Shown here one piece after another: positions 2,439 through 32,095 of a stretch of 64,000 bases of DNA; positions within the stretch are counted from its first letter, which is position 1, and each line of letters starts with the position of its first letter. The translations under genes were made by a program, and so were the position numbers. The stretch is from the sequence record OM362897.1; one strand, 5' to 3'. Under the pieces are notes generated by a model, which was not told the origin of the DNA, searched no databases, and worked only from the letters and a program-made list of their open reading frames with translations. The stretch comes from Escherichia phage SKA64.

Positions 2439-2641
2439 TGGCTTACAATTATTACTGCATTTATGCACATGAAAAGAAAAAAGGTGACACTGGGACTAAC
2501 GTTTATGCGGAGTCCGAATCTCATGCAAAAGAGATTGGTGCTATCCTTTTATCACGCTGGACTGGAAATAATTACAGTGCAGAAGATATGTTTGCAGAAG
2601 TGGATTCTAGAATCCAAGAAGACAACATAACAACTACGTGA
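2438..2641 (+). CDS. hypothetical protein
   Basis: ORF track; ATGG overlap with upstream stop. Confidence 0.5.
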   Translation: MAYNYYCIYAHEKKKGDTGTNVYAESESHAKEIGAILLSRWTGNNYSAEDMFAEVDSRIQEDNITTT

Positions 2642-2650
2642 TATACTTAT

Positions 2651-2676
2651 ACTCCCTTTTCGGAGGGAGTATTTTA
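2651..2676 (+). terminator. rho-independent terminator
   Basis: hairpin actccctTTTCGgagggagt followed by ATTTT. Confidence 0.6.
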
Positions 2677-2686
2677 AGGAGGGATT

Positions 2687-2881
2687 ATGCAGAGCGGAGA
2701 AGAACTTTTAGAGAAACAATTCTCAACGCGTCAACAAGCTTTAAGTTATATGGTTTTTCTAAGCAATCTTGATGTGAATGAGATACTTTTACGGCGCGAA
2801 GGTAATTTCTGGAGCGTTAAATATCATGCAACAAGGTCTGTAATCTACCTGGAAGAGGCGGAATTCTCTTTGGTAGAATGA
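2687..2881 (+). CDS. hypothetical protein
   Basis: ORF track; AAGGAGGG RBS. Confidence 0.5.
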   Translation: MQSGEELLEKQFSTRQQALSYMVFLSNLDVNEILLRREGNFWSVKYHATRSVIYLEEAEFSLVE

Positions 2882-2895
2882 TCCGAGGAGTAGTT

Positions 2896-4548: not shown

Positions 4549-4856
4549 TGTATAAGATTACAATTATTCAAAGTGTAGGTAATATCCGTAAAGAAGTTAT
4601 CTTAGAAACAGAAGATGTTAATCTTGTTCGTGAGATTGTTCTTAAGGAAGATAACCTGCAAGCTGTAGAATCAGATGCACCGAATCTTATGGTGGATCAA
4701 GAATATTCTGAACTTCGTCGTATTTTTGAAGAGATTCAGAAGAAAGAAACACAACCGACCATAAAACCTTTTGGTCCTTATGATCCGAGCAATCCTAGCA
4801 GTCCTTGGATCATGAGAAATACGGAACCGTATACACCTTTTGAAATTACTTGTTGA
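4548..4856 (+). CDS. hypothetical protein
   Basis: ORF track; ATGA overlap with phosphatase stop. Confidence 0.5.
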   Translation: MYKITIIQSVGNIRKEVILETEDVNLVREIVLKEDNLQAVESDAPNLMVDQEYSELRRIFEEIQKKETQPTIKPFGPYDPSNPSSPWIMRNTEPYTPFEITC

Positions 4857-4863
4857 GGTGATT

Positions 4864-5445
4864 ATGGCAGAACTGTTCTATACGGGAGTTGGAAGTAGAG
4901 ACATATCCGAAGAAGAGTGGGCTTTGATGGTAGGCATAGGGAAATGGCTTTCAAACCTTGGGTTTAAATTAAGGTCTGGGAAGGCAGAGGGTAGTGATTC
5001 TGCTTTTGAAACAGGTGTCCAAGAGTCTGAAAATCCTACTAACAAGGAGATTTATGTTCCTTGGGAAAATTTCAAAGGTAATCAGATTCCAGGGGATGTT
5101 ATTGTTCTTGCAAAACCAGATACAATGAACTATGCTATCTCTGTGCAATGGATCAAAGATGTTCACCCAGCCTATGAAAAGCTTAAGCAGGGTGCTAGAA
5201 AATTGCACCAACGTAATGTGCATCAAGTGTTAGGTAGAGATTTGGAGAATCCTGCTCCATCATGTTTCTTGTTGGCTTGTGCTAATACTGATAAACATGG
5301 AGATGCAAAAGGTGGAACAGCTACGGCTTGGAAGATAGCTAAAGCCAATAATGTTCCTTGTTTAAATATTCGTGGGAAAACAAAACAAGAGATTTACGAT
5401 TTTCTACGACCTTTGGTAATGAGGGCAATAACAAGTGATTCCTAG
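4864..5445 (+). CDS. DprA/LOG-like (SLOG) Rossmann-fold protein
   Basis: ATG 4864 after GAGGTG; YTGVGSR...LSNLGFKLRSGKAEGSDSAFETG matches GSR...G..L.SG.A.G.D.A pattern of DprA/Smf/LOG fold. Confidence 0.45.
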   Translation: MAELFYTGVGSRDISEEEWALMVGIGKWLSNLGFKLRSGKAEGSDSAFETGVQESENPTNKEIYVPWENFKGNQIPGDVIVLAKPDTMNYAISVQWIKDVHPAYEKLKQGARKLHQRNVHQVLGRDLENPAPSCFLLACANTDKHGDAKGGTATAWKIAKANNVPCLNIRGKTKQEIYDFLRPLVMRAITSDS

Positions 5446-5947
5446 ACGTAAACGTGGTGAACAAAGAACAAACTTGGCAGAAATCTTAGATTACAACATG
5501 GTTAATGATGTGACAAAAGAAATTCTCCCTGTTGTAGAAGATATTCTTCGTAGAGGGTTACGATTCTGCTCGGATCGGGTGCATTTCATGTGGACACATA
5601 AAAGTGACTCCTCTTTGAATTTTTATCCTTTAGACTATACTCTGAACAATACGGAGATGAAAGATATCAACAAATATTTAATGGGATATAAAGATATAAC
5701 CGAAACTGTTCTTGGAGAATTGGCAGAAATCTTGGCTAATGATATCCTTAGAAATATTAATAAGGCTCTTGACAGAAGCCCAGCAGGAGTAGTAGTATCT
5801 TTTGCTGTGCCAGATATGGTTAAATATGAGTCTACAATACCTAATAAAGCTTATGCCTTTCTTCGGAGAGACGTTCGTGGAAATGTGTTGGAGATGGAGT
5901 CAAACTACAAGATTGAGGAGGTTTTATGGCAGAGTTCGGATCAGTAA
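5435..5947 (+). CDS. hypothetical protein
   Basis: ORF track; GTG start overlapping upstream stop; alternative ATG at about 5495. Confidence 0.45.
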   Translation: MIPRRKRGEQRTNLAEILDYNMVNDVTKEILPVVEDILRRGLRFCSDRVHFMWTHKSDSSLNFYPLDYTLNNTEMKDINKYLMGYKDITETVLGELAEILANDILRNINKALDRSPAGVVVSFAVPDMVKYESTIPNKAYAFLRRDVRGNVLEMESNYKIEEVLWQSSDQ

Positions 5948-6216
5948 CAAGTTTTGAAAGTAACTTCGTTACCGCTTGGGAAGCTTGGGATGAAATGGGT
6001 GTTGGGGAACTTTATTTTTACAATGTAACACTACGTCCAGAGTATGCTTACCTGGTACCAGAAGGAACAGTTCAAATTGGCATGTATTTGTCTTCTCAAG
6101 ACGGTGTTGTTCAATTTGAGTTTTATTCTAACACAACGGACAACGAATTTACATACCGCGCATTTCATGTCAACATGTCTTTAGGAGAGGAGAAATTTTA
6201 TGACGACCAAGTTTAA
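5926..6216 (+). CDS. hypothetical protein
   Basis: ORF track; GAGGAGG upstream. Confidence 0.45.
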   Translation: MAEFGSVTSFESNFVTAWEAWDEMGVGELYFYNVTLRPEYAYLVPEGTVQIGMYLSSQDGVVQFEFYSNTTDNEFTYRAFHVNMSLGEEKFYDDQV

Positions 6217-6397
6217 AACAGTAGAAGAAGCCGTAAAAGCAGCTTATGAGGCTTTAGCGGAAGCAGAACAGTTAGCAGACGAGACTGGTGAAGGTTTCAG
6301 TTTCTCCCCTGAATATGGGATGGGTGGTTATTATGATCCAGAAGATGAAAATGAGAATACTGGAACAAATTGGCATCCATCTTCTTTAAGTTGTTAA
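6200..6397 (+). CDS. small acidic protein, member of tandem family with C-terminal W-x-SS-x-SC
   Basis: ORF track; ends TNWHPSSLSC. Confidence 0.5.
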   Translation: MTTKFKTVEEAVKAAYEALAEAEQLADETGEGFSFSPEYGMGGYYDPEDENENTGTNWHPSSLSC

Positions 6398-6408
6398 TAG
6401 GAGGTAAA

Positions 6409-6678
6409 GTGGGAATCGAAGATATCAAAGGTTATAAACCGCATACCGATGACAAAATTGGTAAAGTGAATGCTATTAAAGATGCTGAAGTTCGATTAGG
6501 ATTAATCTTTGATGCTCTAATGTCTGAATTGTGGGCTGAACTGGATGATTGTGAAGATTTGGAAGAGTCTACCAATATATCCACCCGCCTTGACCAAATT
6601 TCAATAGCAAAGACTAAGTTGAAAGAAGCTTCTATGTGGGCCTGTCGTTCCGTTTTCCAACCAGAGGAGAAATACTAA
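6409..6678 (+). CDS. hypothetical protein
   Basis: in-frame GTG at 6409 after AGGAGG (6399-6404) preferred over track start 6370. Confidence 0.4.
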   Translation: MGIEDIKGYKPHTDDKIGKVNAIKDAEVRLGLIFDALMSELWAELDDCEDLEESTNISTRLDQISIAKTKLKEASMWACRSVFQPEEKY

Positions 6679-6896
6679 TGAGTTATCGTAATGTTGAAGA
6701 ATTAACTGAAAAAGCCCAAGCTATTATGGCTTTGGTGGACGAACTTACAAAAGAAGCTGAAGATGCTGGTTTTGGTCTTAGTTTAGAAGATGACGCAATC
6801 TGTTTTGAAGATTGGCAATCCTCTTCTTGTTATGGTGAAGGTGATGATGGTTTCGTTGTTAATTCTCAAGGCGTTTGGCACAGTAGTAGCTGTTAA
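6678..6896 (+). CDS. small acidic protein, tandem family member
   Basis: ATG 6678 after GAGGAG; ends QGVWHSSSC. Confidence 0.5.
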   Translation: MSYRNVEELTEKAQAIMALVDELTKEAEDAGFGLSLEDDAICFEDWQSSSCYGEGDDGFVVNSQGVWHSSSC

Positions 6897-6905
6897 GGAG
6901 AGATT

Positions 6906-7178
6906 GTGGAGTCTGAAGGTGAACTGCTGATAAAAAAGAAAGTTAAAGAGATGGAACAAGCACAAAGAAAGTTTCGTAAGGAAATTGAAGAACTTTGTGA
7001 ACAGTTTCAGGAACAAGCTTGGATAGGTGACTACGGTAACGGAGAAACTTATTACCCTACAGGAACGCCAGCCGCAGATCACTATATTGATTTCATTTGT
7101 GAAGATTATGGTGTAGAGTTGGATGAAAATGGTTTAACCACAAGAGGTGTTTGGATCTCTTCTTCCTCAATGTGTTAG
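6906..7178 (+). CDS. small acidic protein, tandem family member
   Basis: GTG 6906 after AAGGAGAG; ends RGVWISSSSMC. Confidence 0.5.
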   Translation: MESEGELLIKKKVKEMEQAQRKFRKEIEELCEQFQEQAWIGDYGNGETYYPTGTPAADHYIDFICEDYGVELDENGLTTRGVWISSSSMC

Positions 7179-7186
7179 TAAATAAT

Positions 7187-7210
7187 AACCCGCTTCGGCG
7201 GGTTTTTTAT
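7187..7210 (+). terminator. rho-independent terminator
   Basis: aacccgcttcggcgggtt hairpin followed by TTTTTT. Confidence 0.7.
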
Positions 7211-7238
7211 TGACAGGAATCTGGAAGCCTGATAAACT
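7210..7238 (+). promoter_or_regulatory. sigma70-like promoter
   Basis: TTGACA, 17 bp spacer, TAAACT, about 30 nt upstream of gene at 7269. Confidence 0.4.
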
Positions 7239-7268
7239 TAACCTATCAACCAATAGAGGAGAAATATT

Positions 7269-8210
7269 ATGGTGTTAATTGGTAGCCGTGCATTACAAAT
7301 TCATGCTATGGACATGGGAAAAGACTTGTATCGCCCTTGTGTAGATTTAGATTACCTGTGTACAGAACAAGAGTGGGAAGAATTATCAAAAATGTTCTCT
7401 CAAGACGAGTTTGTTGAACTTGTAGAACGTAAAGGGAGCAAAGGCCATGTCAAAATGATAGCTGGTGCACATTTGGAATACGATATTGCTTCTCAAGGAG
7501 ATAGCACAGAAGCTTTGATTAGTTATTGTGAAGATTCTGATGATGTTCGTCGAACTTACGCTGGACATGTTGTTGCTCCTTTAGATGTGCTCTACCTTCT
7601 TAAAATGAGTCATCGTTTTAAAAAGGATAGTCCTCACTTCTTTAAAACTATGAAAGATATTCATTTCATGCGGTCACTGGGCGCAAAGATCCCAGAAAAT
7701 CTTAAGAGTATTTATGAGTTGCGTGAGAAAGAAACATACACTTACTCTCATCCGAACTTAAACGTAAAAAGTAAAGAGTTCTTTAAAGGTGACGAGGTTC
7801 CGTATGTTTATGATCATGATTCTATCCATGAAGCAATCGCGTTAATGGATGCTCCAGCATATAAATCTTATATGAAAGATGGAAGTGAAGTTATGACCAG
7901 CAAAGAAAAGTTTTTTGCTCAACCAAAACATGTGCGGCTGTTAGGTGTTTATGAAGAAGCGTGTGTTTTGGCTTTGGAACGTTCACAAATTCCTTTCGGT
8001 GAAGAGATCGGAGGTCCAACCCCTAAGCAAAGTTTTATAATGGCTTTATCTAAAGTCTGCACATCCATCACTAGTGGTTGGTTTAGGGAATATGCTTGGG
8101 AAAACTTTTATGTTGTTATTAAGCTATATGAAAACATGGGCGAAAACGACTATGTTGAACGTTTTAAAGCTAATCAACATGTAGTAAAGCCTTTTGAAGG
8201 AGGTTATTAA
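7269..8210 (+). CDS. hypothetical protein (313 aa); weak minimal-nucleotidyltransferase-like N-terminus
   Basis: ORF track; AGAGGAG RBS; N-terminal LIGSRAL...VDLDYL loosely resembles GS...DxD NTase signature (spacing atypical). Confidence 0.55.
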   Translation: MVLIGSRALQIHAMDMGKDLYRPCVDLDYLCTEQEWEELSKMFSQDEFVELVERKGSKGHVKMIAGAHLEYDIASQGDSTEALISYCEDSDDVRRTYAGHVVAPLDVLYLLKMSHRFKKDSPHFFKTMKDIHFMRSLGAKIPENLKSIYELREKETYTYSHPNLNVKSKEFFKGDEVPYVYDHDSIHEAIALMDAPAYKSYMKDGSEVMTSKEKFFAQPKHVRLLGVYEEACVLALERSQIPFGEEIGGPTPKQSFIMALSKVCTSITSGWFREYAWENFYVVIKLYENMGENDYVERFKANQHVVKPFEGGY

Positions 8211-8211
8211 T

Positions 8212-8607
8212 ATGTGTGGATATCTTTCAGAAAGTTATTTCAAAGTGACGCATGAGGATTTAGAAAAAGCACGATTGAAACTGACAGCTATTATTGAATA
8301 CTCTAATACTGTTGAACACAGATTAAAGACTACTAAAGTATCTGTTCCTTGTTGGTTAGGTTTACGGCATAAAATAATGTCTCAACATGACCATGTTGTT
8401 CGAGAGATGCATGGTTGGTGTTGGTTTCACGATGTGGCTCTGCATTTTGGTTATATTACAGAAGAAGAGCATAGATTCTGTGAACTAACATATCGTATTC
8501 CAACCCTTCACGATTTAGATTTGTGGAAGAAAGCAAACGAGATTTTTCTTACAGAAAGTGATTGGCGTAAAGTTATGGCTTGTCTTGAATGGAGGGGTAA
8601 TGAGTAA
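8212..8607 (+). CDS. hypothetical protein
   Basis: ATG 8212 after GAAGGAGG preferred over TTG 8194. Confidence 0.55.
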   Translation: MCGYLSESYFKVTHEDLEKARLKLTAIIEYSNTVEHRLKTTKVSVPCWLGLRHKIMSQHDHVVREMHGWCWFHDVALHFGYITEEEHRFCELTYRIPTLHDLDLWKKANEIFLTESDWRKVMACLEWRGNE

Positions 8608-9283
8608 AACAGTTTTGTCTATGTTTGACGGATCTGGGATCATGGTGTTACGTTATGCCGAAGCAGGTCACAAGTGTTTTTGTGTAAACGCTGATGAAGG
8701 GGATCACGGTAAATACGAGGTTAGGATGGAGCACCCAAACATAACCTATGTGAATGCCTGGATAGATTCTACATTCAACCCTGAAGATCATGGGATACCT
8801 AAACCCGATATTATTTTTGGATTTCCACCTTGTACTATGTTAGCAGGTAGTGGTAGCAAACACGAACGTAGCACAGAGGAATTAGATGAAGCTTTAGCTA
8901 ATATTCGTGTAGTGGAAGCTTTGGGTAACAAATATAATGTTCCTTGGATGATTGAGAACCCAGTAGGTAAACTTTCAACCTTATGGCGTAAACCCGATTT
9001 TTACTTTGATCCTTATGAATATGGTGGGTATTTGTTTGAAGAGGAAGGAAGCTTTCATCCTAAAATGCCTACCCGTGATGGGTATACAAAGAAAACTTGT
9101 ATTTGGCACGGCAATGGTTTTGTTCAACCAGTGAAGAAACCAGTAGATCATATAGGCTGCTTCTGGGGTTGGAAAAGCTTAGGTGGAGCTAGTGCAAAAA
9201 CAAAACAACTTAGATCCCTAACCGCACGTGGTTTTGCTCGTGCCGTGTTTTTGTCTAACAATCTTCTAGATAAGGAGAAATAA
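8600..9283 (+). CDS. short C5-cytosine methyltransferase-like protein (catalytic core only)
   Basis: ATG 8600 after GGAGGGG; SMFDGSG (motif I-like), FGFPPCTMLAGSG (motif IV Pro-Cys-like), MIENPVGK (motif VI ENV-like); no obvious target-recognition domain at 228 aa. Confidence 0.45.
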   Translation: MSKTVLSMFDGSGIMVLRYAEAGHKCFCVNADEGDHGKYEVRMEHPNITYVNAWIDSTFNPEDHGIPKPDIIFGFPPCTMLAGSGSKHERSTEELDEALANIRVVEALGNKYNVPWMIENPVGKLSTLWRKPDFYFDPYEYGGYLFEEEGSFHPKMPTRDGYTKKTCIWHGNGFVQPVKKPVDHIGCFWGWKSLGGASAKTKQLRSLTARGFARAVFLSNNLLDKEK

Positions 9284-9933
9284 TGTCAAATTCAAAACCA
9301 GTAGTTGCTTATCAAGTAGATCGTAATGATGGTGAAGGAAGTGTTGTTATTTTCAGTACACACGGTCTTGAGGCTCGTCGAAAAGGTGCATATCGTTTAG
9401 AATGTGAGTTTGAAGACTGCACAAGCCACCGTGTGAAACAATTCGATCAATATGCTGATAAAGGCTTCGTCCCTATCAAAGCCTTACTGGAAGATGGTTG
9501 GTGGGTATATTCTGCTTTTGATGGTGTTAGACTCGACGAACCTGTAGGAGGTCTTGAGGCAGATTTTGACGAATGCGAAGATGGCTTGTATATTGAAGAG
9601 GATCTTGTATTTTCCCTTGACGAGAAAAGCGTGTGGAAGAACTGGGAAGAAATGGAACGTCACGCGCATTTTATCAACAATGCTTTGATTCGTAAAGCTT
9701 GGTTTATGGAGGCGGTGAAGGTAGCGTATCCGCAGTTCACCTTTACAGAGGTTTGGGGCGGTCCACACCACATCACCCATACAGCATTTTTCGACTTCCC
9801 TGGTTCACGTTACAAAGGTAATATAATGTGGGACTGGGATGAGAATAAAGTACCATCTGTTAAAGACTTTCGTTGTTATGTTTGCCAAGGCGATCAAGAA
9901 GCCCTTGACAAATACCTACAAAGTCTGGTATAG
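9283..9933 (+). CDS. hypothetical protein
   Basis: ORF track; ATGTCA overlap with upstream stop. Confidence 0.55.
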   Translation: MSNSKPVVAYQVDRNDGEGSVVIFSTHGLEARRKGAYRLECEFEDCTSHRVKQFDQYADKGFVPIKALLEDGWWVYSAFDGVRLDEPVGGLEADFDECEDGLYIEEDLVFSLDEKSVWKNWEEMERHAHFINNALIRKAWFMEAVKVAYPQFTFTEVWGGPHHITHTAFFDFPGSRYKGNIMWDWDENKVPSVKDFRCYVCQGDQEALDKYLQSLV

Positions 9934-9950
9934 TGCCAGCATCTGAACAA

Positions 9951-9980
9951 AGCCTCCTGTTTCAGGGGGCTTTTCTTTTA
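9951..9980 (+). terminator. rho-independent terminator
   Basis: agcctcctg-tttc-agggggct hairpin then TTTTCTTTT. Confidence 0.6.
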
Positions 9981-9991
9981 TGGGAGGAAAT

Positions 9992-10483
9992 ATGTTTCAA
10001 GTAGAAATTCATGTGCACAACAGTTGTTCAAATTGCGAGACTTGTGGTTACAATAGTTCAACCATGATCACTATTAGCGGAGACTTAGGAGATGCCAAGT
10101 TTGGCGAAGTCGCAAGCTGCTTCAGCGGAGAGGATGCAGATTGGCATGATATTGCACACTGGTTGGTGAGCAAACTAAAAGAAAAAGAGAAACCATTTCC
10201 TACTCTGCTTGATCGTTCTCTTGTGGAAGATGCAGGTAAAGCATATGCAGACTATGCGTATGCAGACGGGAAATATTTGGAAGATGATAAGGCTAACCAT
10301 TTGCTTTATGTTTACTATGAAGCTGAATCTGCCTACGATAATTATTACAGCATGTCCAACATTCTACGTTTGTTTGCGGAGTTTGATATTTACTTTGAAG
10401 TGAGTTATTCTCAAGACGAAGTGTACGATTTGGATGACGAAGATTATGATGATTATGAGGAGGAAGAATGCCAAGACGATTAA
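9992..10483 (+). CDS. hypothetical Cys-containing protein with acidic tail
   Basis: ATG 9992 after GGGAGG; track start 9980 lies in terminator T-tract. Confidence 0.55.
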   Translation: MFQVEIHVHNSCSNCETCGYNSSTMITISGDLGDAKFGEVASCFSGEDADWHDIAHWLVSKLKEKEKPFPTLLDRSLVEDAGKAYADYAYADGKYLEDDKANHLLYVYYEAESAYDNYYSMSNILRLFAEFDIYFEVSYSQDEVYDLDDEDYDDYEEEECQDD

Positions 10484-11268
10484 TAGTGATCAGCGGCGCG
10501 GGTCTAAGCGCCGATAGCGGTGTACGTACTTTCCGCACTGACACAGAAAGTGGCAAAGCTTTGTGGGATGAATACGACCTTTCTGAAGTGTGCGACATTT
10601 TCAACTTCCGTGCTGGATACCAACAAGAACAGTGTGTTCCTGGGGCTGTTGGCGGATTAGATGCAGAGGGATACAACCTCTACCGTAAAACTCATGACTT
10701 CTACAATAAACGTCGCGTAGAGATGGATAGTGTAACTCCTAACGCTGCGCATTACCAGATCGCGGAATGGTTCCAAGAGTACGGCTGTGATCGTGTTATC
10801 AACATCACGACAAACGTAGATGATCTTCTGGAACAAGCAGGTGTTGTTCATGAAGATGTTCTACATGTTCACGGCTTCCTGCCTGAAGTGATCGTAGACA
10901 ATAGAATCATCAAAGATGTTGGCTATGCTGCTATCGATGTGGATGATTACAAGTATGTGAAGCCCAATGTAGTGTTCTTTGGGGAGACTGCCCCATTGTA
11001 TAACGATATGTACCACATCTTAGACGGCTTGACGGCTCAAGATATGGTGATTGTAGTGGGTTGCTCTAATCAAGTTATCAATTTTAACTGGGAGCTTTTT
11101 CCTGCTCTTAACATCGGAACAAAAATGGTTGTAGTTAACCCTGGAGTTAATTACGAAGAAACACTTCTCTATGAAGATCGTGGAGTTTTTGTTTACCGAG
11201 AAAAAGCTGCAACAGCCTTCAGCAATGAAGGTTTCATTAAAATGGTCGAAGACCACTTAAACAAATAA
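10468..11268 (+). CDS. Sir2-family (sirtuin-like) NAD-binding protein
   Basis: GAGLSADSGVRTFR, TTNVDDL, LHVHG, VVFFGE sirtuin motifs; no Cx2C...Cx2C zinc module seen. Confidence 0.8.
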   Translation: MPRRLIVISGAGLSADSGVRTFRTDTESGKALWDEYDLSEVCDIFNFRAGYQQEQCVPGAVGGLDAEGYNLYRKTHDFYNKRRVEMDSVTPNAAHYQIAEWFQEYGCDRVINITTNVDDLLEQAGVVHEDVLHVHGFLPEVIVDNRIIKDVGYAAIDVDDYKYVKPNVVFFGETAPLYNDMYHILDGLTAQDMVIVVGCSNQVINFNWELFPALNIGTKMVVVNPGVNYEETLLYEDRGVFVYREKAATAFSNEGFIKMVEDHLNK

Positions 11269-11277: not shown

Positions 11278-11302
11278 GGGGCTTCGGCCCCTTTCTTATT
11301 AG
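11278..11302 (+). terminator. rho-independent terminator
   Basis: aaggggcttcggcccctt hairpin plus T-rich tail. Confidence 0.65.
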
Positions 11303-11311
11303 GAGAATAAA

Positions 11312-11584
11312 ATGACTGAAGAAATCCGTGATTACTACCTTGCACATTACGTTTACTACTTTGCCAATGCTACACAAAAAGGGGAAGGTAATCTTTACTT
11401 GGCAACAGGGCATGGAACAGGCGTTAGGAAATCAAATATTGATAACGCCTTGGCTCAAGTGGCTGCTGGGCTAGAAGATAAACTTCAAACACCTGTAGTT
11501 GTAGTGATGCAAAACATAAGTTACCTAGCAAGCTGTACTGAAACCGAATTTAACGCGTCTGAAACGCAATCTAACGAAGAATAA
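11312..11584 (+). CDS. hypothetical protein
   Basis: ORF track; AGGAG RBS. Confidence 0.5.
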   Translation: MTEEIRDYYLAHYVYYFANATQKGEGNLYLATGHGTGVRKSNIDNALAQVAAGLEDKLQTPVVVVMQNISYLASCTETEFNASETQSNEE

Positions 11585-11907: not shown

Positions 11908-11931
11908 TGAAAAAACCCGCCGAAGCGGGTT
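11908..11931 (-). terminator. rho-independent terminator (minus strand)
   Basis: acccgccgaagcgggt hairpin; U-run on minus strand after it. Confidence 0.6.
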
Positions 11932-15863: not shown

Positions 15864-16059
15864 TTCTACCTCCTTCAATGCTTTGTGCCGTACCATCCCA
15901 AGCCATTAGAATGTTTTCCAATAGTTCACGAGGCTCTTTAAACCAAACTTCCATTTCATCAAGAATCTCGTCCGTGTCGTAAGTATAACCTGGAACACCA
16001 AGTTCACATTTCTTAAGATAGCTTTCTAACCAGCGGTGATAATTCTTAACCCCATTCAT
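15856..16059 (-). CDS. hypothetical protein
   Basis: ORF track. Confidence 0.5.
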   Translation of the reverse strand: MNGVKNYHRWLESYLKKCELGVPGYTYDTDEILDEMEVWFKEPRELLENILMAWDGTAQSIEGGRNE

Positions 16060-16432
16060 ACTGTGCTACCTTTTCTTTTACCCAATCTACACGATCTTTA
16101 TCATAATGTTGAGTGCCAAGGAAAAGACCATTGTGGAAACTTTCCTCACCGAAAGGATAAATTAGATCTAAACCATCTTCTTCAAACAACATTTTTAATC
16201 TGTTTGATGTAGATTTCTTAGTTTCTGAATTGTAGTTTGTGGTTATAAGCCAATCTTCCAAACAACGACACAAGCCTTGACGAGAATCCCAAGGAAAAAC
16301 ACAATCTCCGACAGGAGCTTGTTCCGCCCATTTCAACCAACCTTTAAAAAAGTTATACAATATGTAGTCTTCAGTGTAATACATTAGCGCCTCCTTTACA
16401 TATACAATAACACCCCGCAGAACGGGGTGCAA
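16046..16432 (-). CDS. paralog family A member
   Basis: shares F-x-K-x-WL, GLC-x-CL, PF and C-terminal WV-x-(D/E)-(K/R)-(I/V) blocks with five other ORFs. Confidence 0.55.
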   Translation of the reverse strand: MHPVLRGVIVYVKEALMYYTEDYILYNFFKGWLKWAEQAPVGDCVFPWDSRQGLCRCLEDWLITTNYNSETKKSTSNRLKMLFEEDGLDLIYPFGEESFHNGLFLGTQHYDKDRVDWVKEKVAQYEWG

Positions 16433-17051: not shown

Positions 17052-17324
17052 TCACCCCCAAGAAATATTTATATATCTTACAATGTTTGCACTGTCTAAA
17101 GCCATGTTTGCACCACACCCACGCTCGCGCCAGTAACTAACAATACCTTCACAGATACTCTCTTGTATCTTCTTATCACTTGGCATTTCTAGTATAAGAT
17201 TTGGGTTATGGATGTTTATGTTATAATATCCTTCCTCTGCGGCTTGAGCTACCAATTTACTTACTTTTTCAAAGTACGGGGAATTAGTGGCATCTGCTAT
17301 TGTTTTTAAGGTTTGTCTATCCAT
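17052..17324 (-). CDS. hypothetical protein
   Basis: ORF track. Confidence 0.5.
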   Translation of the reverse strand: MDRQTLKTIADATNSPYFEKVSKLVAQAAEEGYYNINIHNPNLILEMPSDKKIQESICEGIVSYWRERGCGANMALDSANIVRYINISWG

Positions 17325-17722
17325 TATTCTGCCTCATCATAGAAGAAATCCAACTCTTGTTCCAGTTGTTTAACTCGATCCTTAACCCACTGTACACGTT
17401 TTTCATTAAACATGCAACGTTTTTCCTTACACTCTTGCTCAAAAGATTTTGCTGTGTTAAATGGGAAAGTTGTATCTAAGCCAGCGTTTTCAAAACTGGC
17501 TAATTGCATACCATAAACAGAATATGCTAAAGAATGCTCGGCCCGAAATTCATCACTTATATACATACGTAGACCTCGGCATAAGCCAACATCAGCGTAA
17601 CCACTTTCTCTTGGAAAGAGACGGAGGTGTTCTAACCAATTATTATAGAAATCTAAAAGAATCCTCTTACACTTCAAATCGATTGTCATAAAAAGTTTCT
17701 CCTTCATCGAACAAGTTGGCAA
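17324..17722 (-). CDS. paralog family A member
   Basis: LLDFYNNWL...GLCRGL...FPFN...VQWVKDRV. Confidence 0.55.
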   Translation of the reverse strand: MPTCSMKEKLFMTIDLKCKRILLDFYNNWLEHLRLFPRESGYADVGLCRGLRMYISDEFRAEHSLAYSVYGMQLASFENAGLDTTFPFNTAKSFEQECKEKRCMFNEKRVQWVKDRVKQLEQELDFFYDEAE

Positions 17723-18097: not shown

Positions 18098-18775
18098 CTA
18101 TTTAATGTTCAGTCTGGCACACAAACGAGAAACAGTTTTAGCATCCCATTTACCACCACGTGCTGTTGCTATTTTCTTACTATTGAATTTTTCAGCAATA
18201 GTTTTGTAAGGTGTATTTAAATCTCTAAGGATCTCCAAGCGTTCACGGAATGTCTCTGCAAAAGCGTCTGCTTTAACAGAGTTGTATTCCATTTTTCCTT
18301 TTCTACGTGCAGCGGCAGTTTTAGGATTAGCACTGCCTAATAAAACACCTTTGCTTTTTGCTACAGCAAGACCCTTTTTAATACGATCAGCAATACCTCT
18401 AACTTCTTGTTCAGCCAGAACAGACAGAAGCTGTATAACCATTTTATCTGCGTCTGGCATAATGGCTATCTTAACATCGATCATTTCTAGAAGAGTTGCT
18501 ACGGAGGCGTTATTACGACCCAAGCGGTCAACTTTAGCTACCAATAAAGTTGCTCCGGTAGCTTTACACATTTCAACCGCTTTAACCAGTTCCTTACGTT
18601 GCTTCCAATCGCCCTTACCCGAATAGTATTCAGAAAATTGACCAATAACTTCCGCATCAGGCACAGAGTCTAAGAAGTAACGGATATCATTCTCTTGGCT
18701 CTCCATACCATATTGTGCCTCACCTTTTTTCTGTTTAGAAAGACGACTGTAAACAACAAACTTTTTCATAACCAC
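18098..18775 (-). CDS. small serine recombinase (resolvase/invertase family)
   Basis: YSRLS catalytic-Ser context, LLVAKVDRLGRN, E-x-E...I-x-x-RIKKGL blocks; 225 aa, no large-integrase extension. Confidence 0.7.
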   Translation of the reverse strand: MVMKKFVVYSRLSKQKKGEAQYGMESQENDIRYFLDSVPDAEVIGQFSEYYSGKGDWKQRKELVKAVEMCKATGATLLVAKVDRLGRNNASVATLLEMIDVKIAIMPDADKMVIQLLSVLAEQEVRGIADRIKKGLAVAKSKGVLLGSANPKTAAARRKGKMEYNSVKADAFAETFRERLEILRDLNTPYKTIAEKFNSKKIATARGGKWDAKTVSRLCARLNIK

Positions 18776-18839
18776 TCCTAAACCATTGCTGTATTCTCAC
18801 TTTACAAAACGAATAAACACTTGTCAAGGTATTTATTAT

Positions 18840-20535: not shown

Positions 20536-20759
20536 TCTTCCATCTCAAACCATTCAGGGAACACTTTGCGGAAGACCCGCGTGTTTTCTAAGAGAAATTC
20601 CAACTCTTTTTCCAAATCTGCGTTCCAACCGTTTATTTTAACACGGATTGCCAATGCACTTGCACGGCGACTCAATTCTTGACAGATTGGATCACGCAGA
20701 ACTATTGAGTCATAAAACTGACAAACAGCCTCAAGTTCATACCAGTTATAATCTGACAT
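20532..20759 (-). CDS. hypothetical protein
   Basis: ORF track; ATGA overlap. Confidence 0.45.
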   Translation of the reverse strand: MSDYNWYELEAVCQFYDSIVLRDPICQELSRRASALAIRVKINGWNADLEKELEFLLENTRVFRKVFPEWFEMEE

Positions 20760-21085
20760 TATTCATCCTCCTCTGCAATACGATCTCTTACCCAATTAAT
20801 CCTGTCCACGTTCAGGTGACATACCTCTGCATCTGATTCTAAGACATATGCATCGTAGTTCTCATTGAAAGGGAGTGCTTGACTCAACCCTTTATAGTGG
20901 AACTGCGCGTGCATTTCATCTGATAAGGTCGTTATAATGGGGTTGTAATTGCCTCTGTGCACATAGTCGAATAAGTTGGCACACAAACCGCAATCCCGCC
21001 GAAAAGGTTTACCATCAGGAGCACCAACATCAATCCATGCTAGATAAATTTTATAAAACTCTATCAACCTTGCGCTTGTTTTCAT
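20759..21085 (-). CDS. paralog family A member
   Basis: FYKIYLAWI...GLCANL...PFN...INWVRDRI. Confidence 0.55.
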   Translation of the reverse strand: MKTSARLIEFYKIYLAWIDVGAPDGKPFRRDCGLCANLFDYVHRGNYNPIITTLSDEMHAQFHYKGLSQALPFNENYDAYVLESDAEVCHLNVDRINWVRDRIAEEDE

Positions 21086-23799: not shown

Positions 23800-24036
23800 T
23801 TATTTATCTTGCTTGTATCTTACAAGGCGATCACACTCTAGGTCAAGAAATTTCTCCGCATTTCGTTCATGTTTGAGCACAATACATTGTTCTTTCCAGT
23901 CTGTAGCTCTTTGCTGCGCTGCTCCTGGGTCAAAATCCCAAAGCCATGCCGCGAAAAGAACAACCATAACAATCACTAAGAAACTAAACACTATTGGCAT
24001 TGCACATCCTCCTGTGTAGCATGGTCTTTTACCCAT
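23800..24036 (-). CDS. small membrane protein
   Basis: ORF track; PIVFSFLVIVMVVLFAAWLW hydrophobic helix. Confidence 0.45.
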   Translation of the reverse strand: MGKRPCYTGGCAMPIVFSFLVIVMVVLFAAWLWDFDPGAAQQRATDWKEQCIVLKHERNAEKFLDLECDRLVRYKQDK

Positions 24037-24305
24037 TTTATACGGGCAGCATTCAAATGCAATAGCCCGTTTCTTTGTGCAAAATCATATTTAAACCAGT
24101 CTCCGTCATCAAACGGGTATTCTTCAGACAATCCTGCCTCACGGAATTGCATTTGCATTTCATAATTTAGATCATCATAACCTCCAGTCCAAAGGTAGAG
24201 GCAACTACATAATCCTTTATCATGCCAGAAAGGATTATTATCTGGAGCACCAGCTAACAGCCAGTTATGATATGCTTGATAAAATTCTTTAAGTTCTTCT
24301 GACAT
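23991..24305 (-). CDS. paralog family A member
   Basis: FYQAYHNWL...GLCSCL...IKWVKDH. Confidence 0.55.
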   Translation of the reverse strand: MSEELKEFYQAYHNWLLAGAPDNNPFWHDKGLCSCLYLWTGGYDDLNYEMQMQFREAGLSEEYPFDDGDWFKYDFAQRNGLLHLNAARIKWVKDHATQEDVQCQ

Positions 24306-27461: not shown

Positions 27462-27830
27462 TTATTCAATGCAAGCATTATTTGCATCTTCAATTCTGTC
27501 TTTCACCCATTGAAGACGTAACGTGTTGGTATGACACGCCAAGTTTATACACTCTGAAAGGTAATCCATGCAATCTGCATTGAACGGAAGATTGTAGTCC
27601 AGCCCTGCACATGTAAATTGTTTCCTCATTTCATATTTCAAGCGGTCCAACAAACTATCCCGCCATCTTCTATCTTCTTCTCTAGTTGTCTCACCAACAA
27701 AATCATTTACATAATCTACCAGACAACCACATAAGCCACTCGTTGTGCGATTCATTGCAGGATAGTTGGCAATCCATGCTTTATAGAAGCGAAGCAATGT
27801 TGCACTGCTCAACGGAATACTATTTGTCAT
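27462..27830 (-). CDS. paralog family A member
   Basis: FYKAWIANY...GLCGCL...PFN...LQWVKDRI. Confidence 0.55.
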   Translation of the reverse strand: MTNSIPLSSATLLRFYKAWIANYPAMNRTTSGLCGCLVDYVNDFVGETTREEDRRWRDSLLDRLKYEMRKQFTCAGLDYNLPFNADCMDYLSECINLACHTNTLRLQWVKDRIEDANNACIE

Positions 27831-28164
27831 TTTTCTCTCCTTCGTAATCTTGAATTCTATCTAGCACCCATTGTATACGATGTTTGTTTTTATGGCAAAT
27901 ATGTTTTTTATGTTCGAAGGTGTATTCTTCATAACCACCTTCATTAAACGGGAAATTGTAATCCAATCCTGCACCAATAAACTGTGATTTCATCTCCTGT
28001 TGTAGACGAGGTAACAGTTCATCAGGATATGTTCCCTCTACATACTTAATCAAACATATACACAAGCCACTCGTTGTGTGACCTTCTACCTCACCAGCAA
28101 GCCAAGCTTTGTAAAACTTCATTAGACGTAAACTACTCAACGGAACATTTTTACTCTCTTGCAT
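27820..28164 (-). CDS. paralog family A member
   Basis: FYKAWLAGE...GLCICL...FPFN...IQWVLDRI; adjacent to previous member. Confidence 0.55.
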   Translation of the reverse strand: MQESKNVPLSSLRLMKFYKAWLAGEVEGHTTSGLCICLIKYVEGTYPDELLPRLQQEMKSQFIGAGLDYNFPFNEGGYEEYTFEHKKHICHKNKHRIQWVLDRIQDYEGEKNDK

Positions 28165-28891
28165 GATAATCTCCTCTCATCGTTAGCCATCTTTCATGGC
28201 AATCATCAATCACCAACATCATACGATCAATCTTAGGGAATTACAATCGAATTATCATAGGGGATTCCTATCAATTATCCCATATATACCGATTATTTTT
28301 GACACCCCACTCTTGTATAAAAAGTAACCCAAAATATCTACGGGGAGAGATTATTTCGGGACACCCTGTTTCATGGCAATCATGGCAAGAATATCTAATA
28401 GAATCAATATCATATGGCAAAAATCATGGCGCATACGTAAGAAGTGCTTAACGCGAATTTTCGGGCCGTCAGGTCCACGCAGCGACAATTCCCAAATATC
28501 ATGAGAATGAGAATAATTATCATTCGTATTCAATGACTTATGCAAGGCTTATGCCAACGTAGCGACAAGGTGGGCCACTTGATTATAAATCACACAAACA
28601 CTTATTTATCAATGGTTTGGCAACCTCATCATATGACGGAACAATGTCAACTGATCCCGCTCATGACAAGCAGACTATTATTTATATGAGAATGATTATT
28701 ATTTAAACGTTTATTAGCATAAAAACTAAAATAAATCAAGAATTTTCTGATTTTATTTACGTTTAAGAGAAGATGCTCAACATATCGCTACGCGATAGTA
28801 TTCGCCCCCGAAAGATTAGCCTTTATTTTCTTGTATGTTTATACGCTATGTGCACACTATGCAACCTGTCGCTATTCGCTCATGTTGCTAC

Positions 28892-29167
28892 GTGCTAATA
28901 CTTCACCGTGCTAATGATCTTTGAGCGATAGCGATTATTTCATCTTGTAATTACCACAATGATTATTGTTATTGCGCTAATGTTATGATCTTGGTAATTA
29001 CATATAATGCTAATAATAAGCCAGCGCAATAAGTGTAAGCGTATTACGCTTGCAATTATTGCAAGCTACGCAGTAACAAGAAATAACCATCACCGATGGT
29101 TATGATTGTTGGGGTGTAGTTGGCTTATTATTAGCTCGCTATGTGTCCGGCATAGCGTGCTAATGAT
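28892..29167. repeat. iteron-like direct repeats (C)GTGCTAATGAT plus palindromes
   Basis: GTGCTAAT-type copies at about 28892, 28908, 28974, 29008, 29157; palindromes AAGCGTAtTACGCTT (about 29037-29051), TTGCAATtATTGCAA (29050-29064), AACCATCaccGATGGTT (29085-29101). Confidence 0.5.
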
Positions 29168-29684
29168 GACTCTGTGAATGATTCGTTTTGTAATGATTTC
29201 ATTTAGTCACTATTATGGCAATAGTTATTATTTTAATGGTTTCGTTTGTTATTGTTCGTTAGTTGGTTGTTTTGTCGTGTTATCGTTATCTTGCTTAGTA
29301 TTCATCATGGTTTGATTGTTTGTTGTTATCAATCATCTTGCTATTATTCCTTTGATTATGATTAGTTTGCTTATTGTTTTATGTTGTTTGTTGGTTAGTT
29401 GTTGCGAACTATTATCAACATTATAGTTATGCACTTATATTGCATAGATAAACATGGATAGATGATAATGGTTATCATTGCACTAGAAAGGAGGTAAAAG
29501 GGTGTTTTTGATGGTTTGTTGTTGGTTGTTGATCGATTTTAACCGCTTTAAATGGCTCTCTAACAGCCTGTTACCCTGGGAGGTATGGTTATTCATTTAA
29601 TGGTTGATTAGCTCGATACCGCGATCTATTCAGTTTTGTTCTGTGTCGGTTTTTCATAGGCGGAATCTATCAACATTATTCAGG

Positions 29685-29720
29685 CAAAAAGAAAGGGCGC
29701 TTAGTGCGCCCCTTGTTTTG
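29685..29720. terminator. bidirectional terminator
   Basis: GGGCGCttagtGCGCCC hairpin flanked by A-run and T-run; same hairpin recurs at about 30260 and 36052. Confidence 0.6.
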
Positions 29721-29727
29721 TTGTCAA

Positions 29728-30147: not shown

Positions 30148-30287
30148 GATGTTGTCCTTTGTTTCGTTTCGTTGTTTGCTGCCAGTGAGTTAAATATAAT
30201 ATAACGCCGATCCCCTGTCAATAGGGGATAGCGCATTATTTACATTTCTTTACGTTAAAGGGCGCTTAGTGCGCCCCTTGTATAATC

Positions 30288-30656
30288 TTACTTTGTGCGG
30301 TTGTGAACGTTATCGCGTTCAACCATCAAGGCAAGGCGGATCAGTTGATCAGTTGTATCGCGTAAATTGTCGGGCCATGTTTTACTGTTCCAGCTATCCA
30401 TGTTTGATTGTATATAGGTTTCAATGGCTTGATCCATATTATCAAACAAGTTTTCCTCCAGGCTCTCGGCTGTTTCACACTGGAAAGCATTAGCGACACT
30501 ATTAATCAATAAGCAAGCCAGTAAATCAGCATTACGCCAATTTTTACGGATAGTTTCATCTTCCAGATAAGCTACCAAATTAATATTTGCGCCAGTGGTT
30601 GACGTTGCGATCACTTCTTGCGCTTTTTCAACTGCTTTAATTGCCGATTTGCTCAT
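30288..30656 (-). CDS. hypothetical protein
   Basis: internal ATG (MSKSAIKAV) after AAAGAGGAAAAG; track N-terminal extension runs through the promoter hairpin. Confidence 0.55.
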   Translation of the reverse strand: MSKSAIKAVEKAQEVIATSTTGANINLVAYLEDETIRKNWRNADLLACLLINSVANAFQCETAESLEENLFDNMDQAIETYIQSNMDSWNSKTWPDNLRDTTDQLIRLALMVERDNVHNRTK

Positions 30657-30673
30657 CTTCTTTTCCTCTTTGT

Positions 30674-30734
30674 GGGCTTGCTGTATTGCTCGCCCTACGT
30701 GATAAATAATAATAGAAAGGTGATCCGGTGTCAA
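30674..30734 (-). promoter_or_regulatory. promoter + leader hairpin cassette (variant)
   Basis: minus strand TTGACA...TATTAT-like -10, CACGTAGGGCG then weaker hairpin; upstream of 30288..30656. Confidence 0.45.
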
Positions 30735-30864
30735 TAGGTAGAATTGTAAAGATTCGATAGTTTATCTCTTTGATGTTTTGTTGTTTGATAGGTGTTAGCT
30801 ATCAATATATAGCGGGGTCGTCCGGTGATTACCTCCCCCGTTGCCAGTGCCGCCCGTTGAATAA

Positions 30865-30905
30865 GCATAACAAAAAACAGGACAAAAGCAAGCCCTGTTT
30901 TTGTA
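30865..30905 (-). terminator. rho-independent terminator (minus strand)
   Basis: aaacagg...cctgttt hairpin with U-run on minus strand after gene ending 30910. Confidence 0.45.
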
Positions 30906-30909
30906 AAGA

Positions 30910-31113
30910 TTAGATGATTTGCATATCCTCCACGATAATTTCTAATTTCCAAACAAGATGATCTAAGCTCCCTGATAAAAATGATTCCGATACATAACCG
31001 CCATCGGACACCGTAGCAAGGATCTCGCCATTTGCTTGCTCTTTGATTTGAACATCCAGGCGGTTAGCCTTTGCTTTGTTCAGGACGGCGATCAGGCGGT
31101 TAGCTGTAGTCAT
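30910..31113 (-). CDS. hypothetical protein
   Basis: ORF track; GGAAGGA RBS. Confidence 0.55.
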   Translation of the reverse strand: MTTANRLIAVLNKAKANRLDVQIKEQANGEILATVSDGGYVSESFLSGSLDHLVWKLEIIVEDMQII

Positions 31114-31135
31114 GGTGTTTTCCTTCCAGTTGTGA

Positions 31136-31191
31136 GCGGCACCATTGCCGCCCTACGTGATACATCTTACACTATCAGATACATTGTGCAA
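31136..31191 (-). promoter_or_regulatory. promoter + leader hairpin cassette
   Basis: minus strand TTGCAC, 16-17 bp, TAAGAT, then GTAGGG + hairpin gcggcaccattgccgc. Confidence 0.5.
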
Positions 31192-31197
31192 GCTATT

Positions 31198-31389
31198 TTA
31201 GATCTCGTCACCTATATAATCAGATCTGTTCTTCTCTGTCATACGTTTAAACAATTCTTGCATATGGCTGATAGCTTGCAATGTGTCTTCTTCCAGGCTT
31301 GAATCGAGATAATCAGGATCATTCTTTACCTTGCTATGGTTGTGATACCGCAACGCTGCTAATACCTTTCTAACTTGTTCTGCATTCAT
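31198..31389 (-). CDS. hypothetical protein
   Basis: ORF track; AAGGAG RBS. Confidence 0.55.
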   Translation of the reverse strand: MNAEQVRKVLAALRYHNHSKVKNDPDYLDSSLEEDTLQAISHMQELFKRMTEKNRSDYIGDEI

Positions 31390-31401
31390 TTTTATTACTC
31401 C

Positions 31402-31536
31402 TTAAAACCAGGTGCCAACCGTTTCCAATAGGTCACTGACTACCAGAACAACATTGATTAGCACATATTTAATCAGGAAGGGGATAAGCGCCAGCGTCGC
31501 TACTATGATCCCCATTGTGATGATTACCTTTCTCAT
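31402..31536 (-). CDS. 44 aa membrane peptide (not in ORF track)
   Basis: ATG 2 nt after upstream stop; MRKVIITMGIIVATLALIPFLIKYVLINVVLVV... Confidence 0.4.
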   Translation of the reverse strand: MRKVIITMGIIVATLALIPFLIKYVLINVVLVVSDLLETVGTWF

Positions 31537-31538
31537 CG

Positions 31539-31823
31539 TTAGCGGTTTACGTAAGCTTTACCGTTTACGGTCATCGGTATGGCTTCAAGGTCTGGATCTT
31601 CCTTAAGGTCGCGTGCAAGCTCACCGCACCGGACACCCTCGAATCCGTGGTATTCTGTTTCCCCGTCCTTAAAAGTTTTAGCGGCAAGGCATAGGCGATA
31701 ATTAACACCGATCCGGTTTACTGCGTTGATATCGGTTAACGTGATCGATTCCGGCAAATCGTTAGCCATGACAGGCGCGTTAATACCAACAACCAGGGCA
31801 ACTACTGCGATCATCTTTTTCAT
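31539..31823 (-). CDS. secreted protein with Sec signal peptide
   Basis: MKKMIAVVALVVGINAPVMA-ND; GAAGAGGA RBS. Confidence 0.55.
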   Translation of the reverse strand: MKKMIAVVALVVGINAPVMANDLPESITLTDINAVNRIGVNYRLCLAAKTFKDGETEYHGFEGVRCGELARDLKEDPDLEAIPMTVNGKAYVNR

Positions 31824-31858
31824 GTGTCTATCCTCTTCCTATTGCGTTTAATGGGGCG

Positions 31859-32095
31859 TTATTGATTGATGTTATGATGAAAGTTATTTTCTTCAACGGC
31901 TTTTAAAATAAAGGCTGTTACCGCTTTCGTGTCTACTTGTTCGAACGTATCAGAATAAGCCCAATAATGATCATCCCCTACTTTCGGCGGGTAAACCTGG
32001 ACAAGGAGATCGCCACCTGGTTGATCTATAAGCTCAACATGCAAGCCGGATGATTCGGCGGTTTTAACGGCGGTTAATACTGTTGCAATACTCAT
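31859..32095 (-). CDS. hypothetical protein
   Basis: ORF track. Confidence 0.5.
   Translation of the reverse strand: MSIATVLTAVKTAESSGLHVELIDQPGGDLLVQVYPPKVGDDHYWAYSDTFEQVDTKAVTAFILKAVEENNFHHNINQ

Follow-up and report, generated by a model that had tools for sequence, protein, structure and literature searches.

We analyzed a gene for a small serine recombinase on the minus strand of a 64,000-nucleotide (nt) stretch of Escherichia phage SKA64 (sequence record OM362897.1; the whole stretch is hereafter called the window). The window comes from a Phapecoctavirus (Stephanstirmvirinae), a phAPEC8-like E. coli myovirus of ~150 kb, and is 96-99% identical to ~64 phages of this type. The recombinase gene and the features that belong to it are as follows.

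18098..18769, minus strand: coding sequence (CDS) of the serine recombinase, 672 nt, 223 amino acids (aa), with the ATG at 18769-18767 and the stop codon TAG at 18100-18098 (open reading frame (ORF) list, Pfam, PHROG).
18335..18769, minus strand: catalytic domain and helix E, residues 1-145 (PF00239, family alignment, AlphaFold2 (AF2) model, Foldseek).
18101..18334, minus strand: linker and C-terminal four-helix DNA-binding domain, residues 146-223 (PF07508, below its cutoff; AF2 model).
18775..18779, minus strand: Shine-Dalgarno sequence AGGAG, 5 nt 5' of the ATG (read from the sequence).
18799..18827, minus strand: putative sigma-70-type promoter TTGACA-17 nt-TAAAGT, directly upstream of the recombinase (promoter scan).

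The ORF list gives a frame of 225 aa that runs from a GTG codon (18098..18775, minus strand), and this is how the gene had been described in an earlier, model-made reading of the same DNA (the original prediction). The ORF itself is real, but its start and length should probably be replaced: the GTG (18775-18773) overlaps the Shine-Dalgarno sequence AGGAG (18779-18775) as read from the sequence, and because of this clash the 223-aa product starting at ATG 18769 is the most likely one. Relatives are annotated with the same 672-nt CDS, and the exact 223-aa protein occurs in 884 indexed blocks of public assemblies.

The predicted promoter matches the consensus at 10 of 12 positions, has a perfect -35 box and ranks second within 6 kb of the promoter scan. 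Early promoters in the neighbouring array of small genes are of this class too, and the recombinase homologs of phage phi92 and of a 51%-identical metagenomic relative (L008) each have their own TTGACT or TTGACA promoter. We infer that the recombinase is transcribed early from its own host-type promoter. The upstream intergenic region of ~64 bp is filled by this promoter and the ribosome binding site, and the next gene downstream begins 8 nt past the recombinase stop codon.

The phAPEC8-like group has been described as strictly lytic (PMC6563267, PMC12695924, PMC10282059), and short direct terminal repeats have been described at the ends of its genomes (PMC6563267, PMC12695924). We confirmed a 329-bp direct terminal repeat in the relative Schickermooser; it maps to window 28449-28777, and the records of several relatives begin or finish at window 28449/28450. 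Because the terminal repeat maps there, the recombinase can be placed ~10 kb inside one genome end, with its transcription directed inward. Its neighbours are small early phage genes, and the lytic-type gene block in which the original prediction had placed it was thus correctly recognized.

The catalytic domain is well defined. The 225-aa form matches Pfam Resolvase (PF00239) at residues 7-144 with E=5.4e-18 and 65.9 bits (cutoff 23.3), and PHROG 125, named "DNA invertase", with E=1e-32. Ser11 in the motif YSRLS is the predicted nucleophile, and Arg9, Gln25, Arg58, Asp81-Arg82, Arg85 and Glu120/Glu122 are also present. In a family alignment of 32 sequences reaching down to ~30-31% identity, Y7, R9, S11, G21, Q25, R58, D81, R82 and R85 do not vary, and at least 90% of the sequences keep E120 and E122. 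Equivalents of gamma-delta resolvase R8, S10, D67, R68, R71 and E118/E124 can be assigned, and alignment to the Tn3 and gamma-delta resolvases puts the phage DRLGR motif in register. The AF2 model (predicted local distance difference test score, 89.5) has strands at residues 2-10, 39-48, 74-77 and 99-101 and a long helix E at 109-139. Foldseek searches returned Sin, gamma-delta, TP901-1, Bxb1 and PhiC31 with a probability of 1.00 at 15-28% identity, the top structural matches of the catalytic domain being the Sin and gamma-delta resolvases.

The C-terminal domain is modelled as four helices (149-172, 175-183, 188-197 and 210-219). It bears a weak resemblance to the part of large serine recombinases where their "recombinase domain" begins: PF07508 aligns to residues 189-218 with 18.2 bits, under its cutoff of 21.1, and no match to Pfam HTH_7 was reported for this domain. 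The modelled protein therefore has the architecture of a small serine recombinase, that is, 223 aa with the catalytic domain at the N terminus and one small C-terminal DNA-binding domain. The resolvase/invertase catalytic core proposed originally is borne out by the Pfam score above cutoff, the intact catalytic residues and the fold matches, and the gene product is, judged from its sequence, a genuine small serine recombinase of an uncharacterised clade remote from every characterised subfamily.

Among the characterised proteins the gamma-delta, Tn3 and Sin resolvases come closest. They share with the phage protein the domain order (catalytic N-terminal domain, helix E, C-terminal DNA-binding domain) and the catalytic residues, and they give both the best sequence matches (E=3e-6 to 2e-4, the former with Tn3 resolvase) and the best structural match (Sin, 3pkz, E=9e-7, template modelling score 0.69-0.73 on the target). 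On the other hand, the phage protein is only ~20-28% identical to them, its loop between strand 4 and helix E is shorter, and its C-terminal four-helix module differs from HTH_7 and lies nearer to the start of the large-recombinase domain. Unlike genes of the Tn3/gamma-delta type, moreover, it has no adjacent res site that we could find and no transposase, and its host is a virulent phage. The match to the invertase Gin (4m6f, E=6e-3, 19.7 bits) is weaker than those to the resolvases, and the NCBIfam models YneB, XisF, Mpi and CcrB all score far under their cutoffs (Mpi, E=7e-5).

The recombinase lies at a fixed position in the ~64 sequenced relatives, and its immediate neighbours are the same in 10 independent assemblies. 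At least 21 genomes among the matches listed encode the protein with 100% identity, despite a DNA identity of those genomes of 97.3-99.7%, and 62 records are at least 99% identical; full identity thus extends to most of the ~64 genomes. Between the window and the relative Ro121c4YLVW the gene differs at 13 nucleotides and at no amino acid, random changes being synonymous in 22% of cases. Such a pattern indicates that the recombinase is under strong purifying selection. Since the protein is invariant at 97.3-99.7% DNA identity, with its catalytic residues invariant as well, the decaying remnant of a mobile element, one of three roles offered by the original prediction, is ruled out.

One relative departs from this conservation. 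In Schickermooser (MK373788.1, L012) the recombinase carries six small deletions (1, 1, 7, 1, 2 and 7 nt) within its first 230 nt that destroy the frame, and its annotation holds only a 128-aa C-terminal recombinase ORF. The deletions, at 11296-11568 of that record, correspond to window ~18540-18775, that is, to the catalytic N-terminal third, and the other 440 nt are identical to the window. Schickermooser is a viable isolate, and its copy may be a true natural knockout or may stem from a local sequencing or assembly problem; if the deletions are not sequencing errors, the recombinase would be dispensable in the laboratory.

Beyond the genus, homologs are found in the phiWec genus (74% protein identity), in phi92-like Justusliebigvirus (57%), in Klebsiella phages (51-55%), in Vibrio and Shewanella myoviruses (35-38%) and in a few ICP1 isolates, where the gene lies within an isolate-specific block (30%). 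The family is thus kept across several lineages of virulent myoviruses of 127-154 kb. Its two domains diverge at different rates: between the phiWec genus (P0005) and Phapecoctavirus the catalytic domains are 95% and the C-terminal domains 37% identical, and for another homolog (P0006) the values are 85% and 36%. At the DNA level, only the catalytic part and the promoter can be aligned with phiWec186 within the gene (18336-18837, 81%), and the flanking genes have diverged from phiWec186 as far as the recombinase C-terminal domain has. A word-index search for a donor of the phiWec-type C-terminal domain gave no candidate, a negative that carries no weight.

We also searched for inversion and integration. 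Set against shuffled controls, the window and a complete 148-kb relative, put together from four pieces, yielded no inverted-repeat pair above chance other than terminator hairpins, and this computed search agrees with the original prediction, which had found no flanking inverted repeats by eye. The sole above-chance inverted repeat of the window is the terminator hairpin AACCCGCTTCGGCGGGTTTT(TT), which occurs at 7187-7208, 11910-11931 and 44455-44474 in both orientations. No strong even-centred long dyad was found in the window except one terminator. All tail-fibre and spike genes lie on one strand, the tail-fibre genes more than 50 kb from the recombinase; the tail module is colinear, without inversion, in all relatives (~65 close genomes; 178 records, 185 places), and the whole window is colinear with the complete relative, again without inversion. 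In the hypervariable early region the relatives differ by gene replacement, not by inversion. Altogether no inversion polymorphism was seen across ~65-180 relatives or 10 independent assemblies, where consensus assemblies could hide minority isoforms. Because the repeat, dyad, strand and colinearity tests were all negative, a switch like those of Gin or Cin is unsupported. The invertases of the Hin/Gin/Cin/Pin group (Mu Gin and P1 Cin among them) belong to the same superfamily, may likewise be phage-borne, and lend the phage gene its database labels "DNA invertase" and "gin"; they differ from it in that no inverted crossover sites and no invertible tail-fibre segment were found with the phage gene, which lies in the early region far from the tail fibres. 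As for integration, the 3-kb region never turned up in 5,426 complete E. coli genomes (20,395 records, chromosome or plasmid, searched in near and distant modes), nor did the recombinase gene by itself or the capsid genes give a DNA match in E. coli genomes.

We then looked for the site at which the recombinase might act. A dyad over the -35 box (AATAAATACCTTGACAAGTGTTTATT) pairs at 9 of 13 positions, a value equalled by 25% of random 130-bp tiles, and was rejected. The distant homologs supplied no template, there being no usable inverted repeats around P0071 and P0089. A 19-bp palindrome, AATGAGAATnATTCTCATT, occurs six times against 0.09 expected, at the following places.

28506-28524 and 28685-28703: two copies of AATGAGAATnATTCTCATT in the terminal repeat.
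41795-41813, 41824-41842, 41853-41871 and 41882-41900: four tandem copies of AATGAGAATnATTCTCATT at exactly 29-bp spacing in a second non-coding region (gene-free over ~41540-42300).

The palindrome is kept in tuntematon, iGC_PHA_EC001, Schickermooser and phiWec186. It is close to the E. coli Fur box (7-1-7 core TGAGAATnATTATCA) and is centred on a single base pair. As a crossover site it was rejected: it is odd-centred, it resembles the Fur box, and it is unchanged in phiWec186 despite a DNA-binding domain that is only 37% identical. Iron-responsive control, an origin or a packaging signal are possible roles. Right after the four phased copies, at ~41900-42100, there is AT-rich non-coding DNA with direct repeats of the form AAACTTTAAATTTTGsTTTTnnACTTTCAnTTTTGTAAA, annotated only as "repeat_region" in tuntematon; the arrangement looks like an architecture of the replication-origin type.

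Another candidate came from the early genes. Over ~30190-41140, on the minus strand, ~20 small early genes each stand behind a conserved cassette in which a promoter of the type TTGACA-17-TAAGAT is followed by a GC-rich 5' stem-loop (for example GCGGCACCATTGCCGC, GCGGGAACTATTCCCGC and GGGGCGCTTGTCGCCCC). The stems vary through compensatory changes, and the cassettes resemble the promoter-early stem-loop cassettes of T4-type phages. Nowhere in the genome is mosaicism stronger than in this array, which is 30-89% covered in relatives. We considered the cassettes as integron-like sites and rejected them: in comparisons with three relatives, the mosaic breakpoints spread between -402 and +464 nt around the promoter landmark, and the compensatory variation of the stems further weakens the hairpins as sites.

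The recombinase does not stand at the same place in all genera. In phi92 and L008 it lies between a methyltransferase cluster and gp051, and the equivalent place in the window (2438-3459) holds the gp054 and gp051 homologs side by side with no recombinase.

2630..2895, plus strand: "empty" ancestral locus, the gap between the phi92 gp054 homolog (2438-2629) and the gp051 homolog (2896-3459), located by tblastn of phi92 proteins.

Because the phi92/L008 site is empty in the window, the recombinase has moved ~15.5 kb as a unit of promoter plus ORF. No partner gene flanking the recombinase is common to phi92, L008, ICP1 and the window, and neither terminal repeats nor a transposase flank it.

Outside phages, full-length homologs occur on 110 plasmid records at 35-40% identity and 95-99% coverage, 92 of the 110 being non-mobilizable. 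They include replicons of 5.8-6.4 kb made of Rep (and Par) plus the recombinase, in which the homolog is the only recombinase and stands beside Rep/Par. Lone recombinases on small plasmids (Klebsiella pIIIF7SW-P1_2, Marinovum pMaD11, Synechococcus and Paracoccus) resemble the phage protein in standing alone and in being full-length including the C-terminal domain. They differ from it in that the plasmids carry, just upstream of the homolog, ~650 bp of non-coding DNA with dyad sites, where the phage has none; in one Klebsiella plasmid there is a 34-bp even-centred palindrome with a 2-bp centre at this place. From this context and from plasmid multimer-resolution systems in general, the plasmid homologs would be resolvases in a classic multimer-resolution setting. 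Relatives on bacterial chromosomes are at most 41% identical, almost all of them alphaproteobacterial and none in Enterobacteriaceae; they occur in mobile islands, with integrases, restriction-modification genes and transposases as neighbours.

One relative sits in an element of its own. In L006 (positions 1-9200; Logan ERR14228542 contig, also GCA_049170095.1), an integrated satellite-like element carries a 43%-identical small serine recombinase together with a tail protein (PHROG 350), a baseplate hub (PHROG 150) and, at its edge beside housekeeping genes, a 448-aa large serine integrase. The element appears to fit the baseplate-hub-carrying satellites that were predicted for this phage subfamily (PMC10055350).

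From these observations we favour resolvase-type action on the phage's own DNA, to which we give a probability of about 35%. The recombinase would work like the multimer-resolution resolvases of small plasmids, which are the nearest to it among full-length relatives outside phages. In this model, a conserved stand-alone early gene of phAPEC8-like and related virulent myoviruses would make a small serine recombinase predicted to be active, whose dimers would recognize a single defined site in the phage genome. When two copies of this site lie in direct repeat on one molecule, for instance in replication dimers or concatemers or at both ends of an incoming genome, the bound dimers would synapse, Ser11 would cut the four strands with a 2-bp stagger, half of the complex would rotate by 180 degrees, and the rejoined ends would yield unit-length or circular products. 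Early expression, the directionality toward deletion and the phage genome as substrate are presumed here. Of the three roles offered by the original prediction, resolution of replication concatemers appears the most plausible, mainly by analogy with the small-plasmid homologs, and a published remark on the gene likewise guesses at a resolvase acting on concatemers (PMC10282059). That no repeated site was found is compatible with a resolvase, for which a single site in each genome copy suffices. For the proposed function P1 Cre/loxP may serve as a model, though only for function, as Cre is a tyrosine recombinase of unrelated chemistry. Cre is a site-specific recombinase dispensable for lytic growth that cyclises terminally redundant incoming DNA and resolves dimers; unlike the phage studied here, P1 is temperate and plasmid-forming and has a known lox site near cre.

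Several observations weigh against this model. No res-like site was found, and the ~64-bp upstream region offers only a dyad at chance level. Near the genome ends a single palindrome is over-represented; it is odd-centred and Fur-box-like, and it does not co-vary with the DNA-binding domain of the recombinase. The position shift between genera brought along no flanking non-coding DNA; in plasmids and transposons, res and the resolvase are tightly linked. The gene is disrupted in one viable isolate, Schickermooser, and in ICP1 the homolog is accessory and confined to certain isolates. Dimer resolution is not an obvious need of linear genomes that end in 329-bp direct repeats, and immediate-early expression is not what would be expected for the late processing of concatemers.

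The recombinase may instead be directed at foreign DNA, the main rival of this model, which we hold to be possible and doubtful: made right after infection, it would recombine or break satellite, plasmid, prophage or host DNA, with its DNA-binding domain retargeted as needed. The gene lies among early genes of the host-takeover type behind its own predicted sigma-70 promoter, stands alone with no linked site found, and changes position between genera, and both the disruption in Schickermooser and the accessory state in ICP1 are consistent with such a use. We know of no phage small serine recombinase shown to act on foreign DNA in this way. The contrast between 95% identity in the catalytic and 37% in the DNA-binding domain is a modular pattern also seen in the anti-satellite nucleases of the subfamily (PMC10055350). 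Barth et al. predicted PLE-like satellites for this subfamily, which the DNA-binding domains of phage nucleases track, and reported 224 putative E. coli satellites of these phages, some with a serine recombinase and att sites (PMC10055350). The 43%-identical homolog in the satellite-like element and the bacterial relatives in mobile islands point in the same direction. Phage counter-measures that act at specific satellite DNA sites include Odn and Adi of ICP1, which work on satellite origins and attachment sites, and the Odn-like nucleases found in Inny, Muut and Mt1B1_P17 (PMC9638900, PMC10055350). Like the recombinase, they are early or accessory genes with a conserved catalytic and a changeable DNA-binding part from the same phage subfamily, and ICP1 isolates carry the 30%-identical recombinase homolog; unlike it, they belong to other protein families (Odn to the T5orf172 nucleases, Adi being a small non-nuclease). 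ICP1 Adi (gp97.1) was tried as a counterpart of the recombinase and rejected as a different protein. Other results speak against a foreign target. None turned up, and the 5,426 E. coli genomes contained no related sequence, also when the stringency of the DNA search was relaxed; the invariance of the protein inside Phapecoctavirus speaks against a current arms race in that genus; PADLOC and anti-defence families gave no match for the recombinase; and the apparent swap of the C-terminal domain may reflect relaxed constraint, the flanking genes being equally diverged. It is unlikely, in our estimate, that a virulent phage keeps the recombinase as a weapon or tool against satellites, plasmids, prophages or a host locus, with the DNA-binding module exchanged between lineages.

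Three other explanations are much less probable. A DNA invertase could operate a switch through short, weakly similar crossover sites hidden among chance matches, since 26-bp sites with scattered mismatches would evade repeat searches; PHROG 125 and several GenBank records bear the name, and there is a weak match to the model of the master invertase Mpi (E=7e-5, far under the cutoff), which acts on distant sites. The lack of above-chance inverted repeats in the window and the 148-kb genome, the co-oriented tail-fibre and spike genes, the colinearity of relatives, the absence of a strong even-centred dyad and the poor Gin score (E=6e-3) nevertheless make the invertase for a distant switch, another role in the original prediction, improbable. 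A selfish or hitch-hiking cassette, either a moron-like gene or a self-mobilising element heading to decay, would account for the different positions in phi92-type and phAPEC8-type genomes, the gene's own promoter, its accessory state in ICP1 and its disruption in Schickermooser. We regard it as highly improbable in view of the extreme purifying selection and of a fixed position in essentially every Phapecoctavirus, unlike the sporadic homing endonucleases of the same genomes; neither terminal repeats nor conserved flanks surround the gene, and its domain order, with the catalytic domain N-terminal, is the reverse of that in the self-mobile IS607-type transposases, where a MerR-like helix-turn-helix comes first. 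As to an integrase or excisionase serving a hidden lysogenic or plasmid-like state, the serine-integrase superfamily and the weak "Recombinase" domain hit would suit it. The probability is close to negligible: the protein has 223 aa as against more than 400 in large serine recombinases and lacks their zinc ribbon, their coiled coil and most of the recombinase domain, the 3-kb region is present in 0 of the 20,395 records, and the group is described as strictly lytic.

The gene is ordinary in kind and is already annotated publicly as a serine recombinase, resolvase or invertase. Its public labels vary widely: in many records it is called "methionine ABC transporter ATP-binding protein" or "hypothetical protein", elsewhere DNA invertase, resolvase, gin, integrase or serine recombinase (records with varied or wrong labels include OR352955/6, OR062524/9, NC_052662 and LR597654). 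Recombinase genes are routine red flags for lysogeny in therapy screening, and phAPEC8-like phages are popular therapy candidates; a conserved stand-alone recombinase, of whose integration thousands of E. coli genomes show no trace, helps to read such a flag. The conservation also raises the question of why several lineages of large virulent myoviruses preserve a site-specific recombinase under strong selection. If its target is the phage's own ends or concatemers, the replication cycle of the group would include an extra step. If it is a satellite or host element, the recombinase would represent a new type of counter-measure, and no small serine recombinase would before have been shown to take part in a conflict of phage with satellite or host.

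The surroundings of the gene showed several other features. At least six paralogous small proteins of PHROG 2510, with 27-40% mutual identity, are dispersed over the early block that surrounds the recombinase:

16046-16432, minus strand: PHROG 2510 paralog.
17324-17722, minus strand: PHROG 2510 paralog.
20759-21085, minus strand: PHROG 2510 paralog.
24006-24302, minus strand: PHROG 2510 paralog.
27486-27809, minus strand: PHROG 2510 paralog.
27841-28137, minus strand: PHROG 2510 paralog.

Around the terminal repeat, the stretch ~28165-29727 is gene-free, with ~1.5 kb free of any credible ORF and an unusual AT skew. No Rfam family matched in it, and the region is 79% conserved with the sister genus represented by phiWec186. 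Further along, at 43431-44411 on the minus strand, a 326-aa protein combines three CapR-type zinc-finger repeats with a weak T5orf172/MUG113 nuclease domain; because of this combination it appears to be homing-endonuclease-like, of the family studied in ICP1, its nuclease type being CapR/T5orf172 and not RepA_N. It adjoins a 379-aa ATPase (44492-45631), and its length is 326, 335 or 402 aa among relatives.

On the other side, ~7-9.5 kb downstream of the recombinase and near a switch in the direction of transcription, a group of relatives (L019-L028) carry a SIR2-family gene, at a place corresponding to window ~9000-11100. At least one relative assembly has near the same switch a gene of the Acb2/Tad1-hairpin family, a family of anti-defence nucleotide sponges (example coordinates for the SIR2 and Acb2 region genes in L028: 14669-15484 and 19272-19547). 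These genes are consistent with the equivalent of window ~9000-11100 being rich in host-interaction genes.

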